A stretch of DNA of 64,000 bases from Candidatus Nomurabacteria bacterium (GTDB lineage Bacteria; Patescibacteriota; Minisyncoccia; Phycocordibacterales; UBA9973), in assembly GCA_023898605.1 (NCBI GenBank), contig CP060230.1, forward strand, positions 67,944-131,943, given 5' to 3'. Positions 15,850-52,667 of this stretch are shown one piece after another. The notes below the pieces were generated by a model that worked only from the letters and a program-made list of their open reading frames with translations, ran no database searches and was not told the origin of the DNA. The position numbers and the translations under genes were made by a program. Positions within the stretch are counted from its first letter, which is position 1; every line of letters starts with the position of its first letter.

Positions 15850-15923
15850 AAAACTTATAAATTAATGTAGAATCAGAAAACCGGTTTATGCCGGTTTTTT
15901 GATTGAGAGAAACGCCCCCGTAG

Positions 15924-15966
15924 CCCCGACGCTATGGTCGGGGTCCATACAACTTCACTCGTCGGG
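15924..15966 (+). repeat. family-A GC hairpin module (ccccgacgctatggtcgggg...cgtcggg)
   Basis: The 27-nt string gtagccccgacgctatggtcggggtcc is shared with 16641-16667. Confidence 0.7.
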
Positions 15967-16040
15967 ATTAAATGGACCCCAGTTGTAGAGCAAAGCTCAC
16001 AACGGGGCACAGTAGAACAGTTCCGCGCGCCCCGTATCAT

Positions 16041-16633: not shown

Positions 16634-16699
16634 GCTCAGGTAGCCCCGACGCTATGGTCGGGGTCCCGTACTTCTACAAAGTAGAACGTCGGGGCTCAG
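16634..16699 (+). pseudogene. 5' fragment of a ghost tRNA-Phe (GCTCAGGTAG[51-nt insert]CTCAG)
   Basis: Removing 16644-16694, which has ccccgacg...cgtcgggg termini, restores GCTCAGGTAGCTCAG. That string is close to the start of the intact tRNA-Phe. Confidence 0.55.
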
Positions 16700-16702
16700 A
16701 AT

Positions 16703-16963
16703 ATGGCGTGGGTGTATATATTAAAAACTAAATCTGGTAAGTTTTATATTGGTAGCACTATCAATTTAGAGCAAAGATTAAAACACCATAAAGGTGGGAA
16801 TACTCCTTCGACATATAGGTTGAAGTTTGATAGTCTTTTATTGTCTCAAGAATATGATACTTTGAAAGATGCCAGGAGTGTTGAATCAAAATTGAAAAAA
16901 CTCAAACGAAAAGATTATTTACAAAAAATTGTTGAAGATGGTTTTATTAAAATAAAACCCTAA
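16703..16963 (+). CDS. GIY-YIG nuclease family protein (86 aa)
   Basis: Shows VYILKTKSGKFYIGSTINLEQRLKHHKGG. The ATG lies 3 nt after the ghost D-arm CTCAG. Confidence 0.9.
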   Translation: MAWVYILKTKSGKFYIGSTINLEQRLKHHKGGNTPSTYRLKFDSLLLSQEYDTLKDARSVESKLKKLKRKDYLQKIVEDGFIKIKP

Positions 16964-16992: not shown

Positions 16993-17066
16993 GCTCGGGT
17001 AGCTCAGTTGGTTAGAGCACTCGCCTGAAGAGCGAGGTGTCGGCAGTTCGAGTCTGCCCCCGAGCA
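16993..17066 (+). tRNA. tRNA-Phe (anticodon GAA)
   Basis: The acceptor is GCTCGGG/CCCGAGC, the anticodon loop is CTGAAGA and the T loop is TTCGAGT. The flanks tttacaaagt and actttgtaaa extend the acceptor helix by 10 bp. Confidence 0.9.
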
Positions 17067-17092
17067 CTTTGTAAATAAGATTAGATGTGTAT

Positions 17093-17215
17093 GCTCAGTA
17101 CCGACGTCCCGACATGTGGTCGTCGGGAGCACGGAGAGCCGACAGAATCGTCGGCTTTGGTTAGAGCACTCGCCTGAAGAGCGAGGTGTCGGCAGTTCGA
17201 GTCTGCCCCCGAGCA
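17093..17215 (+). pseudogene. 3' part of the ghost tRNA-Phe with a ~57-nt double-hairpin insert after GCTCAG
   Basis: 17157-17216 is a 60-bp perfect repeat of 17008-17067. There is no matching 5' acceptor strand. The insert holds the hairpins tcccgac/gtcggga and gccgac/gtcggc. Confidence 0.6.
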
Positions 17216-17249
17216 CAAGATATAACCTAGTCAATTCTAATTTTAAAAA

Positions 17250-17327
17250 ATGGTACACTACACTTACATTTTAAAAAGCTTAAAGGATGGCAAGTATTAT
17301 ATAGGGTCAACCTCCGATTTGGGCTAG
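17250..17327 (+). pseudogene. truncated GIY-YIG N-terminal remnant (25 codons)
   Basis: Reads MVHYTYILKSLKDGKYYIGSTSDLG and then a stop. Confidence 0.6.
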
Positions 17328-17389: not shown

Positions 17390-17914
17390 ATGATCTTTAA
17401 CTTAAAATACTTTATCATGTCGAATAATAATGAAACAGTTGAAAACCCTACCACTTCTGTAGATAAAGTGGTAATTTCAATCTCTAAACGATCGATCTGG
17501 TCATTTATTGGACTGCTTGTGGTAGCTGGCTTCAGCTATCTCCAATGGATAGGCTATTTATTGCCAACCTTTAAGCAGATATTTATTTTGATTGAGGAAG
17601 CAGATGCTTCAATTTTAAGCGTAAGCCAAATAGGGTTGATGTGGGTGCCCGTAATATCGTACGCCCTAGTGGCGTTAAATATCTGTCTTTTTTTTAATAT
17701 ATTTAAGGAATTAAAGAAAGAGAAAGGTCTCATTGCGGGTCTCATTGTGGGTCTCATTTGGGGTCTTTGGGGTCTCATTGCGGGTCTCATTGCGGGTCTC
17801 ACTGCGGGTCTCATTGTGGGTCTCATTTGGGGTCTCACTTGGGGTCTCACTTGGGGTCTCACTGCGGGTCTCATTATGGGTCTCATTATGGGTCTCAAAA
17901 ATGAGTACTCATGA
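17390..17914 (+). CDS. membrane protein with C-terminal (G-L-I/T-x) tetrapeptide repeat array
   Basis: Two N-terminal TM helices are followed by about 14 in-frame GLIAGLIVGLIWGL... repeats. Confidence 0.6.
   Translation: MIFNLKYFIMSNNNETVENPTTSVDKVVISISKRSIWSFIGLLVVAGFSYLQWIGYLLPTFKQIFILIEEADASILSVSQIGLMWVPVISYALVALNICLFFNIFKELKKEKGLIAGLIVGLIWGLWGLIAGLIAGLTAGLIVGLIWGLTWGLTWGLTAGLIMGLIMGLKNEYS
17726..17896 (+). repeat. 12-bp tandem repeat GGTCTCAYTRNG, about 14 units, in-frame
   Basis: I counted the units directly. One unit is shortened to 9 bp. Confidence 0.9.
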
Positions 17915-25519: not shown

Positions 25520-25644
25520 TATCTTTGCCAGAAAAAATTCGAGCTTCACTAATTTTTTAGTGAAGCTCTTTTGTTTTTCTATTTGCCCGCCCCGCCAAAA
25601 AACAAATTCGTCCGCTTTATTTATTTTGAAAACAGGTTCCATTT

Positions 25645-25765
25645 TGGTGGGCGATACAGGACTCGAACCTGTGGCCTTTTCAACGTCATCCCGCCTATTT
25701 AGGACGGGATAAAATGAACGCTCTAGTTCACCCCGCCTATTTCAGGCGGGGCAAGCTGAGCTAAT
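25645..25765 (-). pseudogene. 3' portion of a ghost tRNA-Val (encodes CCA) with hairpin inserts in the D loop and anticodon loop
   Basis: On the minus strand it reads ATTAGCTCAG[29-nt hairpin]CTAGAGCGTTC[27-nt hairpin insert]TGACGTTGAAAAGGCCACAGGTTCGAGTCCTGTATCGCCCACCA. Confidence 0.6.
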
Positions 25766-25992
25766 TTTTCTTTGTAATCTTTATTTTTCTTTTTTAGCCA
25801 CTTTTCGTGTTTTCTGGCTAGCTCATAATTTTTATATTCTTTGGTGTAAACTAAAACATATGGTTTTAGTTTAGAGGAGGTTTTTAATTTACCACTATTG
25901 TGTTCTTTTAATCGCCTAGTTGGATTATCAGAAATACCCACATAAAAACTTTGGTTTATTTTACTTTTTATAAGATAAACAAAGCAAGACAT
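25723..25992 (-). CDS. GIY-YIG nuclease family protein (89 aa)
   Basis: Shows FVYLIKSKINQSFYVGISDNPTRRLKEHNSG. The start codon lies 1 nt after the tRNA-Val 3' end. The last 14 codons read through the ghost D arm and hairpin. Confidence 0.85.
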   Translation of the reverse strand: MSCFVYLIKSKINQSFYVGISDNPTRRLKEHNSGKLKTSSKLKPYVLVYTKEYKNYELARKHEKWLKKKNKDYKEKLAQLAPPEIGGVN

Positions 25993-25993
25993 G

Positions 25994-26066
25994 TGAGCGA
26001 TAGAGGATTCGAACCTCTGACCTTTCCCACGTCAAGGGAACGCTCTACCGACTGAGCTAATCGCTC
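25994..26066 (-). tRNA. tRNA-Val (anticodon GAC)
   Basis: The cloverleaf folds as GAGCGAT-TA-GCTC-AGTCGGTA-GAGC-G-TTCCC-TTGACGT-GGGAA-AGGTC-AGAGG-TTCGAAT-CCTCT-ATCGCTC-A. Confidence 0.9.
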
Positions 26067-26474
26067 GCTCAAATAAAATTACTACAGTACAAATTGTATC
26101 AATAAAAAATAAAATATGCTCTACTTCACCCCGCCTATTTCAGGCGGGGCAAGCTGAGCTAATCGCTCGCTCAAATAAAATTACTACAGTACAAATTGTA
26201 TCAATAAAAAATAAAATATGCTCTACTTCACCCCGCCTATTTCAGGCGGGGCAAGCTGAGCTAATCGCTCGCTCAAATAAAATTACTACAGTACAAATTG
26301 TATCAATAAAAAATAAAATATGCTCTACTTCACCCCGCCTATTTCAGGCGGGGCAAGCTGAGCTAATCGCTCGCTCAAATAAAATTACTACAGTACAAAT
26401 TGTATCAATAAAAAATAAAATATGCTCTACTTCACCCCGCCTATTTCAGGCGGGGCAAGCTGAGCTAATCGCCC
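26051..26474 (-). repeat. four perfect 102-bp tandem units plus the ghost tRNA-Val 5' end
   Basis: Units start at 26051, 26153, 26255 and 26357, with a partial unit at 26459. On the minus strand each unit contains an AT-rich promoter-like region, GAGCGATTAGCTCAG, a 29-nt hairpin and GTAGAGC. The array ends in GGGCGATTAGCTCAG (26474-26460), which matches the ghost 3' acceptor. Confidence 0.85.
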
Positions 26475-36140: not shown

Positions 36141-36710
36141 ATGAAAAATATGCAAACCCTCTCCGACCATCAATTGGTCCAAATGTTCATGAGTGATGGA
36201 AATGAACAAGCTTTTGGTGAAATCTATCTTCGGTACGAAAATCCCGTGAGAGATTTTATTAAAAAATTGTTTTACGGCAGTAAAATGCCAAACTGTCAGG
36301 ACGAAGATGATATCGTTCAAGAAACCTTCCTGAATGTACATAGTGCCTTGAAAAGAGGCCTGTACAAGAATGAAGGGAGAATGAAGGCATGGATCTTTAC
36401 TGTCGCAAAGAATCTTTTTCTGACAATTTTCCAAAAAAACAAAAGGAAGCCAGTGTCGGAACTCAATGATTGGTATTCTAAAATGGTGTTTTTGCCAGAT
36501 ATAGAGAACAGAATGTTCTCCGAAAGGGCTTTCGAATTTCTACTAAAAAGCGGTAGAGATTATGATTGTTTGTTTTTGTATGCGATTGGTTTGAAATACA
36601 ACCAAATTGCAGAAGTCATGAATATCTCCAAAAACACCGTAGGGGCAAAAATATTTAAACAAAGAAAATCTTTGGAAGAGGTTTTTGCCCCAGAGAGATC
36701 AGAACGTTGA
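36141..36710 (+). CDS. ECF-type sigma-70 family factor
   Basis: Region 2 reads DIVQETFLNVHSAL...AWIFTVAKNLF. Region 4 reads the HTH YNQIAEVMNISKNTVGAKIFKQRKSL. Confidence 0.8.
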   Translation: MKNMQTLSDHQLVQMFMSDGNEQAFGEIYLRYENPVRDFIKKLFYGSKMPNCQDEDDIVQETFLNVHSALKRGLYKNEGRMKAWIFTVAKNLFLTIFQKNKRKPVSELNDWYSKMVFLPDIENRMFSERAFEFLLKSGRDYDCLFLYAIGLKYNQIAEVMNISKNTVGAKIFKQRKSLEEVFAPERSER

Positions 36711-41738: not shown

Positions 41739-42191
41739 ATGAGTTTGCAAACAGACATAAAAGAAAAAATAAAAGAAGCAATGTTGGCAAAGGACCAAGT
41801 AAGGCTTGGTGTTATGAGGATGCTAACTAGTGCGTTTACAAATGAGCTTGTAGCCAAGGGTAAAAAGCCGACAGAAGAACTTTCTGACGACGAGGCATTG
41901 GCCGTGATTGCAAGGCTTGCAAAACAGAGAAAAGACTCAATAAGTCAGTTCGAAGCCGGTGGAAGAATGGATCTTGTAGAAGAAGAGAAGGGTCAGCTAA
42001 CTATTCTAGAAGAATTTTTACCAGAAATGATGGGAGAAGATGAAGTTAGAAGTTTTGTTTCTACAAAGAAAACAGAGCTCGGAGTAGATGATCCAAAAGA
42101 CAAAGGAAAGCTTATGTCAGAAGTTATGAAAGAATTAAAAGGTCGAGCCGATGGAGGCATTGTAAAAAGTGTAGTAGATAGTTTGTTTTAA
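41739..42191 (+). CDS. GatB/YqeY domain protein
   Basis: Shows IKEAMLAKDQVRLGVMRMLTSAF and a 150-aa family pattern. Confidence 0.85.
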   Translation: MSLQTDIKEKIKEAMLAKDQVRLGVMRMLTSAFTNELVAKGKKPTEELSDDEALAVIARLAKQRKDSISQFEAGGRMDLVEEEKGQLTILEEFLPEMMGEDEVRSFVSTKKTELGVDDPKDKGKLMSEVMKELKGRADGGIVKSVVDSLF

Positions 42192-42206
42192 ATTTTTTAA
42201 TTATGA

Positions 42207-42484
42207 ATCCCGTTAGAGATTAATCATGTTTTATGTTTACGTATTACAGAGTAAAAAAGACGGGAAAATGTATACAGGAAGTACCAAAGATCTTCGGAAG
42301 CGCTTTTTGCAACACGAAAAAGGATTATCAACTTGGACAAAAGGAAGAGGTCCATTTATAATGGTTTATTATGAAGCATGTCTCAATGAGCAAGATGCTC
42401 GGTCGCGTGAGACATATTTAAAATCAGGTATGGGAAAGCGTTATCTAAAAAATAGACTTAAGCGCTTCCTATCTCTAACGGGAT
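42207..42484 (+). mobile_element. minimal GIY-YIG element bounded by perfect 14-bp terminal inverted repeats
   Basis: atcccgttagagat (42207-42220) is the reverse complement of atctctaacgggat (42471-42484). ATGAA/TGAA is present on both flanks. Confidence 0.65.
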
Positions 42485-42486
42485 GA
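42226..42486 (+). CDS. GIY-YIG nuclease family protein (86 aa)
   Basis: Shows FYVYVLQSKKDGKMYTGSTKDLRKRFLQHEKG. Confidence 0.9.
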   Translation: MFYVYVLQSKKDGKMYTGSTKDLRKRFLQHEKGLSTWTKGRGPFIMVYYEACLNEQDARSRETYLKSGMGKRYLKNRLKRFLSLTG

Positions 42487-42821
42487 AAATTATAGTTCAT
42501 TGGCTTATCCTAACTCTAGCGGTATTTGCTGTACCATATTTTGTTGGAGGTATATCAGTAGATAGTGTAGTTGTGGCGATTATTGTCGGTGCGTGTCTTG
42601 CGTTTATAAATATGGTTGTAAAACCTGTTATATCTATCCTAACTCTACCCATAAACATAATTACTCTAGGACTTTTCTCTTTAGTTATAAATGCGGGGCT
42701 TTTCTACCTAGTTTCGACAGTCGTCGAAGGTTTTAGTGTAGATGGGTTCATGCCGGCACTTTGGGGATCTCTGGTTGTTTCAATAATAAACTGGTTTTCT
42801 GGTAAAGTCGTAAGAGATTAA
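42483..42821 (+). CDS. phage-holin-family-4 / YvlD-like membrane protein
   Basis: A 112-aa protein with 4 TM helices and the string FINMVVKPVISILTLPINIITLGLFSLVINA, typical of the family. Confidence 0.7.
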   Translation: MKIIVHWLILTLAVFAVPYFVGGISVDSVVVAIIVGACLAFINMVVKPVISILTLPINIITLGLFSLVINAGLFYLVSTVVEGFSVDGFMPALWGSLVVSIINWFSGKVVRD

Positions 42822-52217: not shown

Positions 52218-52667
52218 TTAATCTTCTTTTCTCGAAACAACTAATTCTAGGTTTTCATCTACACTATCTCTCACAACTCTAACGGTATATATTCCAAGCT
52301 GTTTTATGTGTTCAGCCAGTTTTATGTAGTCTTTTGGTATAGTAATACCAAACGTTTTCTTTATTTCTTCGCTTATTCTTTCTTCGTGTATAACTGAATA
52401 AAGTACGCCTTTTTCGTTTGCCTTTTCTTCTAGATGTATTTTTTGACCTCTGATTTTTTCTAGTTCTTTTTCAAATAGACTTGATTGGATGTCTTTTTCT
52501 GCAACTAGGCTAGCTTTTCTTTTTTGTAATTTATCTACAGATTTTGAATCTGCTGGTATGGCTAATTGTTTTGGTATGAGGTAGTTCTGGGCGTATCCAG
52601 AGTTAACTTCTTTTATTTCGTCTTTTTGTCCTACTTTCGGAACAGATTTCAAGAGTATTACTTTCAT
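52218..52667 (-). CDS. rplI: 50S ribosomal protein L9
   Basis: Begins MKVILLKSVPKVGQKDEIKEVNSGYAQNYLIP. Confidence 0.95.
   Translation of the reverse strand: MKVILLKSVPKVGQKDEIKEVNSGYAQNYLIPKQLAIPADSKSVDKLQKRKASLVAEKDIQSSLFEKELEKIRGQKIHLEEKANEKGVLYSVIHEERISEEIKKTFGITIPKDYIKLAEHIKQLGIYTVRVVRDSVDENLELVVSRKED

Follow-up and report, generated by a model that had tools for sequence, protein, structure and literature searches.

A candidate miniature mobile element built around a GIY-YIG nuclease gene and inserted at a start codon in Candidatus Nomurabacteria

The stretch of Candidatus Nomurabacteria DNA analyzed here (assembly GCA_023898605.1, contig CP060230.1, positions 67,944 to 131,943; the whole 64,000 nucleotides are called the window below) carries, between two conserved host genes, a 276-bp unit (42208–42483) consisting of a small GIY-YIG nuclease gene and the inverted repeats that enclose it, which is probably a miniature mobile element. 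All genes of the locus lie on the + strand. Upstream is yqeY (41739–42191, 150 aa; Pfam PF09424 YqeY, 8.1e-41), ending 12 nt before the target sequence ATGAA, and downstream is a gene for a 112-aa membrane protein (42483–42821; PF04020, 1.3e-30), followed by MYG1 and obg. The downstream gene had been called holin-like in a preliminary description of this DNA, made from the sequence alone, but in such a conserved housekeeping neighborhood the PF04020 protein is probably not a phage holin. The nuclease open reading frame (ORF) itself (42226–42486, 86 aa, + strand) encodes a single GIY-YIG domain (PF01541) and runs into the right junction, its stop codon TGA (42484–42486) lying inside the right copy of a short duplication that flanks the element.

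The preliminary description had reported perfect 14-bp inverted repeats around this ORF, and these are indeed present: ATCCCGTTAGAGAT at 42207–42220 and its reverse complement ATCTCTAACGGGAT at 42471–42484 are 100% complementary, stand 250 nt apart and are the only zero-mismatch copies of the repeat in the window. (A 1-mismatch site at 36241, inside a sigma-factor-like ORF, and another similar site at 52275 have no partner arm and are chance matches.) Could such a repeat have come to surround an ordinary gene by coincidence? By itself it is only mildly unusual, with 0.32 perfect 14-nt pairs with a loop of 30–400 nt expected per 64-kb window and at least one such pair in 41 of 200 Markov simulations. 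What gives the repeat weight is that it encloses the ORF and hardly varies among 73 related elements, where the same repeat is found at the same position with compensatory changes; coincidence is already refuted by this and has a negligible probability. The family set, drawn from 80 metagenome loci that reduced to 73 non-redundant elements including that of the window, puts the conserved repeat at 13 nt (42208–42220 and 42471–42483), the outermost A/T pair of the 14-mer being, to judge from this comparison, part of the flanking duplication. The left terminal inverted repeat (TIR), TCCCGTTAGAGAT at 42208–42220, forms the 5' arm of an outer helix and has pairs that covary with the right one, ATCTCTAACGGGA at 42471–42483, which encodes the invariant C-terminus LSLTG of the nuclease and whose last A is the A of a rebuilt host ATG (both on the + strand).

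ATGAA stands on both sides of the element (42203–42207 and 42483–42487). A target duplication, TGAA or ATGAA, had been proposed on these grounds; both copies are there, and the duplication is best described as 4 bp (TGAA at 42204–42207 and 42484–42487, + strand), with an A before it in the target. On the left, A42203 and the first copy constitute the original host ATG, which now opens a mini-ORF, MNPVRD* (42203–42223); 2 nt beyond the stop of this mini-ORF comes the ATG that belongs to the nuclease itself (TAATCATG). On the right, the second copy gives the nuclease its stop and the host gene the TG of its start, the two overlapping as ATGA, an arrangement suggesting that the host gene stays expressed by translational coupling. 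That the downstream start at 42483 was rebuilt from the element end plus the duplicated target, as had been predicted, is borne out both by the sequence and by relatives in which the site is empty and holds a single ATGAAAAT.

These empty sites were found by scanning one genome per species with the PF04020 protein, which gave 80 loci. The order exoX(-)/yqeY/PF04020 is kept in 25 of them (25 species), in most cases with MYG1 and/or obg next, and at no locus of the 25 does a GIY-YIG gene separate yqeY from PF04020. The preliminary description had proposed looking for an empty site in relatives, and 23 of the 25 syntenic species, the sister species L013 included, have one, with a short intergenic space and a single ATGAAAAT-type start directly after yqeY (in L013, ...taaataagatt followed by ATGAAAATCATT). 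When the element and one ATGAA copy are removed from the window, the remaining sequence, ...aattATGAAAATTATAGTT, agrees with the empty sites of the relatives. Two species (L021 and L026) carry inserts of ~125 nt without an ORF at the identical nucleotide of the yqeY/PF04020 junction, and the ends of these are the same as those of the window element (ATGAATCCCGTTAGA(G/A)...TCTAACGGGATGA(A/G)AATTATT). Neighbor-joining trees built on obg+yqeY+PF04020(+exoX) pair the window with the empty L013 as sisters (99–100% bootstrap) and place L021 and L026 in a distant clade, non-sister to each other, among seven empty species. So scattered a distribution implies either that the position was hit independently two to three times or that inserts were precisely lost many times over. 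The window element is a lineage-specific insertion between yqeY and the PF04020 gene. (Three occupied lineages hint at a hot spot, but the comparison of two occupied sites in 25 with none of about 60 other ATGA(A/G) starts at the same loci, a rough estimate, is not significant.)

The protein encoded by the element matches PF01541 with 58.9 bits against a curated cut-off of 22.6 (E = 6.4e-16). The catalytic Tyr of GIY, Tyr of YIG, Arg, His/Tyr and Glu are all present, as assigned from an alignment with BH0048 and I-TevI. Y3, Y5, Y16-T17-G18, R26, H30 and E50 are invariant in sets of 65 and 26 sequences, and R61-E62 and a basic C-terminal segment, GKRYLKNRLKRF, are also conserved. An AlphaFold2 model (pLDDT 91.8) confidently predicts a GIY-YIG fold (beta-beta-alpha-beta-alpha; strands 2–9, 15–20 and 44–52, helices 23–31 and 55–66) with a long C-terminal helix (68–84). 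In this model the 86 aa are fully covered by the catalytic fold and one basic helix, and Pfam finds no second domain or DNA-binding module (NUMOD, IENR1 etc.) in the protein. Foldseek neighbors are 1zg2 (the best), At-HIGLE, Slx1 of Slx1-Slx4 and the catalytic domain of I-TevI, and the nearest solved relative by sequence is the UPF0213 protein BH0048 (1zg2; 5.8e-8, 36% identity). As the only ORF of the element is the nuclease, it carries no transposase of a known class (DDE, DEDD, HUH, serine/tyrosine recombinase or Cas1). The nuclease is intact and under purifying selection, with dN/dS ~0.15 between copies and synonymous sites near saturation. The third codon positions of S83, L84 and T85, which lie in the right repeat, are nevertheless 100% conserved, versus 40–70% elsewhere, so that the ends must be constrained as nucleic acid.

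How widespread are such units? The nuclease has 2816 homologues at E < 1e-5, and an exhaustive search gave 6117 50%-cluster representatives at E <= 1e-3. The best 120 homologues are 72–84% identical and are distributed across Nomura-, Terry-, Taylor-, Wolfe-, Giovannoni- and Berkelbacteria. The family is large, comes mostly from Patescibacteria, is common in ultra-small bacteria of the candidate phyla radiation (CPR) and is apparently undescribed. Close homologues all end in ...RFLSLTG, the translated right repeat, and many homologue gene calls start with MNPVRD, the translation of ATGAATCCCGTTAGAGAT in the left repeat. Measured from CCCG to CGGG, the 73 elements are 270–304 nt long, mostly 272–284 nt. 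Their 13-bp ends, [T/C]CCCGTTAGAGA, are almost invariant and present in all 73, with positions -1 to +11 complementary in 70–73 of the elements per position and paired changes at -1 (T-A 44, C-G 26), +9 and +11. The same ends surround homologous ORFs at more than 60 unrelated loci, ORFs that are 91–95% identical sit in unrelated flanks, and one Terrybacteria contig holds two diverged copies 3 kb apart. (On a Terrybacteria contig, L174, 6435–9591, a copy has a 130-aa PAS ORF on one side and, on the other, an 829-aa PAS/histidine-kinase ORF whose start is 1 nt past the element stop; one sensor-kinase gene may have been split there by insertion.)

The ends of the elements are abutted by an exact 4-nt direct repeat in 33 of 72 cases, versus 14.1 expected from cross-locus pairing (permutation p < 5e-5). 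The repeat is not simply a recurrence of TGAA: where the right 4-mer is something else, 10 of 33 match the left, versus 0.65 expected (TGAG three times, TAAA twice, and TTAA, TAAG, TATG, TTCA and TCAA). If lengths of 3–5 nt are admitted, locus-specific direct repeats flank 42 of the 72 elements, versus 16.6 expected. Together with the shared ends at unrelated loci, these repeats bear out the transposon-like character that the preliminary description had ascribed to the unit. Reconstructed targets read aTGA(a/g), 29 of 33 having A at -1, and this preferred landing site is very often a host start codon.

Landing on a start codon provides the element with coding signals as well. No stop codon belongs to the element itself: the right repeat closes with the final sense codon (GGA or GGG), and the stop (TGA or TAA) is contributed by the duplication. 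In at least 38 of the 73 elements, a real downstream ORF begins at the ATG that spans the right junction, with its A in the element and its TG in the flank; from their N-termini, judged by eye, we take such ORFs to include enolase-, YchF- and L3-like ones. On the left, 29 elements have ATGA(A/G), and in 24 of these the nuclease ORF is in frame with the flank ATG, 18 of the 24 being open MNPVRD... fusions. Five copies (L139, L144, L162, L163 and L172) lack an ATG and depend on that of the host. The left duplicate thus gives the start codon and the host's translation signals, while the right one gives the stop and, with the element's last A, rebuilds the host ATG. (Two entries of the protein database, P0126 and P0129, of 600 aa and 237 aa, are GIY-YIG ORFs fused by read-through to the downstream host gene, as is to be expected where the duplication provides no stop codon; such fusions are a source of misannotation.)

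Derivatives of 45–120 nt without an ORF have the same ends, and they have kept the outer stem and a hairpin directly inside the 3' arm. Seven of 12 have perfect 4-nt duplications of their own (by inspection), and one (L165) lies in the opposite orientation yet retains the TGAA polarity relative to itself. The ends of two elements abut or are nested at four loci (L112, L136, L140 and L120; e.g. CTCTAACGGGATGAATCCCGTTAGAG), which look as if a second element had inserted at the ATGAA regenerated by the first. A further subgroup (L126, L138, L142, L151, L152, L157, L166, L167, L170, L100, L147 and L148) consists of copies, 91–99.6% identical in nucleotide sequence, that lie within multi-copy ORF6N-domain (KilA-N-like) genes, in their C-terminal part and at two positions that recur, and have no clean duplication; L148 and L152 appear to miss the stretch between the two positions, and the hosts of these copies look richer in GC than CPR bacteria. 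(An intron-like reading of copies inside coding sequence was dropped, the hosts being multi-copy ORF6N-domain genes that are truncated near the C-terminus and unspliced.)

The three non-sister lineages that are occupied at the identical nucleotide of the yqeY/PF04020 junction bring to mind a free-standing homing endonuclease gene, intronless like the seg genes of phage T4, which would cut the empty junction in relatives and be copied into it by recombinational repair with the help of flanking homology. I-TevI and Seg have a GIY-YIG domain as well (weak TIGR01453 and PHROG matches, I-TevI as a fold neighbor), which is in keeping with such an origin. However, the other two occupants of the site are ORF-less, and the 86-aa protein, being all catalytic domain plus one helix, has no DNA-binding domain with which to home. 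Nor does homing produce locus-specific short duplications, and it fits poorly with a family found at over 60 unrelated loci with different flanks and with ORF-less derivatives that share only the ends. The homing explanation is accordingly improbable. Comparison with the T4 SegA-G and I-TevI enzymes leads to the same contrast: they too are selfish GIY-YIG genes between host genes, with the same catalytic fold, but they have long DNA-binding domains, make double-stranded cuts and spread by homologous repair, and are not accompanied by TIRs or duplications.

The TIRs are not the only parts of the element that pair. An inner helix joins GGAAGCGCTT (42296–42305, + strand, codons 24–27) to AAGCGCTTCC (42460–42469, + strand, codons 79–82), the latter one base from the right TIR. 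Complementarity of these arms is 9.65 of 10 positions within elements versus 8.23 between elements (p = 2e-4 by permutation over 65 distinct ORFs). From 64 elements, RNAalifold predicts exactly two helices, the outer and the inner one, with compensatory double changes in 12 of the 25 helix pairs (6 of 10 in the inner helix); one pair occurs as A-U in 36, G-C in 14 and C-G in 7 elements. With the structure fixed, 98% of cells pair, and there are 130 double-change cells, versus 35.8 in shuffled alignments, none of 500 of which reached that number, and 2–22 in slid controls. Some of the covarying positions are synonymous third positions, such as K25 (AAA/AAG/AAC) with R80 (CGT/CGC/CGG), for which protein constraint cannot be the explanation. 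The covariation of ends and inner helix therefore implies a constraint on the element to fold in single-stranded form, giving a two-helix stem that holds the gene in its loop.

Is this strand DNA or RNA? The helices might function at the level of the transcript, which would fold into a 25-bp interrupted helix and be processed, for example by RNase III in the manner of rRNA intervening sequences or Correia elements, or couple translation; the element would be tolerated for this reason, and the covariation would be a sign of the RNA function rather than of mobility. The element is transcribed with its neighbors in a yqeY...obg operon that has no intergenic terminators, both helices form in the folded sense RNA (z = -3.3), and the foot of the helix includes the A of the host AUG. 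Moreover, a 2024 survey found GIY-YIG ORFs in insertions of CPR rRNA genes that are not introns (PMC11270868). On the other hand, in typical functional RNA helices G.U is favored over A.C, and here the non-Watson-Crick cells of both stems comprise 10 G.U and 16 A.C. The ORF-less copy in opposite orientation, L165, keeps both the architecture and the flank polarity, and Ssn enzymes, those of the closest known system, do not bind RNA (PMC11893778). Rfam gives no match in the window at the gathering threshold, nor at E <= 1 in 42100–42600. Since a role in RNA would leave the insertion, the duplications and the spread unexplained, it could at best complement mobility, and as an explanation in its own right it is even less probable than homing. 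(Wobble asymmetry was tried as a guide to the folding strand or to RNA identity and rejected, the outer stem having 6 A.C versus 0 G.T and both stems together 16 versus 10.)

Among known systems, the Ssn family is the closest. Ssn (Chenal et al. 2025, Nat Commun; PMC11893778) is a 94-aa single-domain GIY-YIG enzyme that binds a hairpin repeat, NTS/SRM, only as single-stranded DNA; the NTS repeat reads CGTCAT TCCCGCG MAV GCGGGAA TCYRG. Cleavage takes place upstream of the hairpin and close to it. Double-stranded DNA and RNA are not cleaved, whereas a stem composed of two separate strands still supports cutting, which would fit element arms that are 250 nt apart (PMC11893778). SRMs lie on both sides of 42% of ssn genes, and the authors noted that NTS-ssnA-NTS looks like an insertion sequence and suggested domestication (PMC11893778). 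Both systems have a single-domain GIY-YIG protein of about 90 aa without a DNA-binding domain (86 aa in the window), a gene tied to a hairpin-forming inverted repeat with the stem foot TCCCG...CGGGA, and many copies of the repeat without a gene. They differ in that the element's gene lies inside one long-range stem, whereas the Ssn gene lies beside separate hairpins of 20–50 nt, and in the sequence of the repeat, of which only the TCCCG/CGGGA foot is common to both. Only for the element is there evidence of target duplications and empty sites, of insertion at start codons with borrowing of codons, and of a second helix that covaries; the 2025 paper reports no TIRs around the gene, target duplications, empty sites or insertions and does not mention Patescibacteria (PMC11893778). 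The preliminary description had taken transposon-like features to be undescribed for small free-standing GIY-YIG genes. For TIRs and duplications this stands, and the literature yielded no description of a GIY-YIG element with TIRs or target duplications, nor of a link to insertion sequences or to miniature inverted-repeat transposable elements (MITEs), in Patescibacteria or UPF0213; a hairpin-flanked layout like that of an insertion sequence, however, was already known (PMC11893778). The element, demonstrably inserted, extends the recently described Ssn kind of nuclease and hairpin to one in which the gene lies within the hairpin and start codons are the target.

Other classes of mobile DNA resemble the element in part. 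Like IS200/IS605 and the RAYT/REP systems (HUH Y1), it is very small, has DNA secondary structures as cis-acting sites, with a short specific target tetranucleotide by the end, and has gene-less hairpin relatives comparable to the REP/REPIN repeats that are mobilized in trans. Its enzyme, however, is a hydrolytic GIY-YIG nuclease and not an HUH tyrosine transposase, and one long-range stem joins its two ends in place of separate subterminal hairpins; IS200/IS605, moreover, makes no direct repeats and is more than twice its size. The ORF-less derivatives of 45–120 nt are similar to MITEs (Neisseria Correia, ERIC, RUP) in being TIR hairpins with short duplications, and MITEs are often co-transcribed. 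But these MITEs originate from, or are assumed to be mobilized by, DDE transposases, and here there are only the GIY-YIG nuclease and an autonomous 276-bp form. The best sequence and fold matches are the Slx1-like/UPF0213 proteins (BH0048 1zg2, EF2693 1ywl, E. coli YhbQ), which have the same minimal domain; for these, no inverted repeats or mobility have been described, and the bacterial minimal Slx1-like proteins have been treated as vertically inherited repair enzymes (Dunin-Horkawicz 2006; PMC1564403).

How might such an element move? The mechanism that we infer has the nuclease working like the Ssn enzymes: it would attach to a hairpin of single-stranded DNA and cleave immediately beside it. 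Recognition would be of the two-helix stem into which the ends pair, (T/C)CCCG...CGGG(A/G), in DNA that is single-stranded during replication or DNA uptake. The flank tetranucleotide would be part of the cleavage specificity of the nuclease and hence define the target, and host ligation or repair, using the 3–5 nt of flank homology, would complete excision and integration. Of the insertions, selection would then retain those at start codons and some at stop codons, since in a compact genome no others spare the genes and since these also provide signals for expression. A single-strand, Ssn-like mechanism of this kind has about an even chance of being correct.

There is also evidence that weighs against mobility or against this route. 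About 40% of the elements have no clean direct repeat, among them a recurring class of flanks, TTTA...TGAA, and the copies inside ORF6N-domain genes show no duplication at all; recombination between copies, or decay, could have removed the duplications. To our knowledge, GIY-YIG enzymes hydrolyze DNA and have no strand-transfer chemistry, so that integration would require host functions. No vector was identified, neither a protein scan nor a DNA scan for TIR pairs having found viral copies in IMG/VR (the sole pattern match, L173, lies by chance inside a high-GC phage gene), and among plasmids there was no close relative, only one partial match of 39.7% identity. The SRM motif HGTCWY-N0-2-YYVSBRH-N0-5-WNVSBRG-N0-2-RNCYNB has no match on either strand of the whole window. 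Since G.U and A.C cells are about equally frequent, neither the folding strand nor the choice between DNA and RNA can be read from the sequences. The window holds one copy of the element, and eight contigs from other samples, retrieved by exact-protein look-ups of the flanking genes, are 100% identical across it, with no polymorphic empty site or excision junction among them (three of the eight simply have no gene call).

Some of these same observations would suit a domesticated, Ssn-type host nuclease with its recognition hairpin, in which a single insertion has become fixed and the repeats are kept as the binding site of the enzyme. It might, for example, modulate recombination or the uptake of single-stranded DNA, like SsnA/NTS in Neisseria. 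A unit that is fixed and identical in eight samples and present once in 64 kb is consistent with this, and strong purifying selection together with synonymous saturation between copies points to old, maintained genes; Chenal et al. propose the same for NTS-ssnA-NTS (PMC11893778). Against domestication, neither the sister species nor 22 further syntenic species have the unit, ORFs that are 91–95% identical occupy unrelated flanks, and ORF-less copies have the same ends and duplications of their own. The five copies that rely on a captured host ATG also fit better with repeated recent insertion. Domestication, including the role exemplified here, is unlikely, if somewhat less so than homing. That the element is mobile DNA is very likely indeed, and a full-length copy of a miniature mobile element is, with good though lesser confidence, the best explanation of the locus as a whole, shown and inferred parts taken together. 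Whether, at 276 bp, no smaller autonomous DNA transposon has yet been seen, and whether the element is the first to have a hydrolytic GIY-YIG nuclease as its only enzyme, is a more tentative matter. In this reading, whose chances are somewhat below even, it would move through a folded single-strand intermediate, with a recognition stem made of its own ends and part of its coding sequence, and would have evolved to land on start codons and to borrow its start and stop codons from the 4-bp duplication, so that the host gene is left translationally coupled.

The window contains 25 strong GC hairpins, of which about ten are terminator-like (followed by a T run; judged by eye). These had been suspected of being TIR-only, MITE-like derivatives of the element, a suggestion that is half right: TIR-only copies do exist in other species, but the other GC hairpins of the window do not carry this TIR (CCCGTTAGAG). 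A second class of hairpins clusters at 15.9–17.2 kb and 25.7–26.5 kb, where its neighbors are two other GIY-YIG paralogues as well as whole and fragmentary tRNA genes. Its members (CCCCGAC-GTCGGGG twice, TCCCGAC-GTCGGGA, AGCCGAC-GTCGGCT and CCCCGCC-GGCGGGG five times) follow the pattern [T/C]CCCG[A/C]C...G[G/T]CGGG[G/A] and have only the CCCG/CGGG foot in common with the element. They look like NTS/SRM-type hairpins of other Ssn-like genes rather than derivatives of the element.

Several tRNA-related arrangements accompany these hairpins. On the - strand at 26052–26470 there are at least four exact 102-bp tandem units, each starting with the first 19 nt of the adjacent tRNA-Val (GAGCGAGCGATTAGCTCAG) and continuing, where the D-loop would be, with a CCCCGCC-tgaaata-GGCGGGG hairpin, after which comes an AT-rich tail; they are either a real array of pseudo-tRNA 5' fragments or an assembly artefact. 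On the same strand at 25640–26066, the tRNA-Val (25993–26066) is directly followed by an 89-aa GIY-YIG paralogue (25723–25992), whose C-terminus is encoded by the same CCCCGCC hairpin, and then by the 3' two-thirds of a tRNA-like sequence, with a second hairpin (TCCCGTCC...GGCGGGA) and an intact T-arm/CCA end and no 5' acceptor strand. This region looks like a hairpin-gene-hairpin (Ssn/SRM-like) unit inserted in a tRNA gene. In the region 16993–17216, the 3' 60 nt of tRNA-Phe are exactly duplicated (17008–17067 = 17157–17216). Ahead of the second copy, in the D-loop position, stand two GC hairpins (TCCCGAC..GTCGGGA and AGCCGAC..GTCGGCT); this copy has no proper acceptor 5' strand and is followed at 17253–17321 by a 23-codon N-terminal GIY-YIG fragment, 61% identical to the window nuclease. 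An exact 27-nt repeat, GTAGCCCCGACGCTATGGTCGGGGTCC, occurs at 15920–15946, upstream of tRNA-Arg, and at 16640–16666, just upstream of a third GIY-YIG paralogue of 86 aa (ORF 16703–16963). The sequence at 15906–16040 may be another hairpin-interrupted tRNA-like sequence, though it has no Rfam match at the gathering threshold. (Nearby, at 17390–17914, a 174-aa ORF with a long GL(I/T)(A/W)GL repeat region encodes a low-complexity membrane-like protein, with an RP(A/Q)(M/V)-repeat ORF on the opposite strand.)

What would a GIY-YIG element of this kind mean? If the more tentative reading given above is correct, many of the "UPF0213 / Slx1-like repair nucleases" and the Ssn/NTS systems would be descendants of such elements. 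A new enzymatic class, GIY-YIG, as well as a new lower size limit would be added to the prokaryotic transposable elements. The insertions, empty sites and duplications are evolutionary evidence for the proposal that Ssn-type nuclease/hairpin systems are, or were, mobile. A nuclease directed to a hairpin whose stem is split over 250 nt may also be of practical interest for single-stranded DNA tools. For annotation there is a warning, in that 95-aa "MNPVRD..." gene calls and fusions to neighboring genes are element junctions. For the bacteria themselves, the element would represent a parasite strategy suited to very compact genomes, in which insertion at a start codon secures the host's translation signals while the duplication restores the host start, and it would account for the abundance and the similarity of small GIY-YIG genes across distant CPR lineages.

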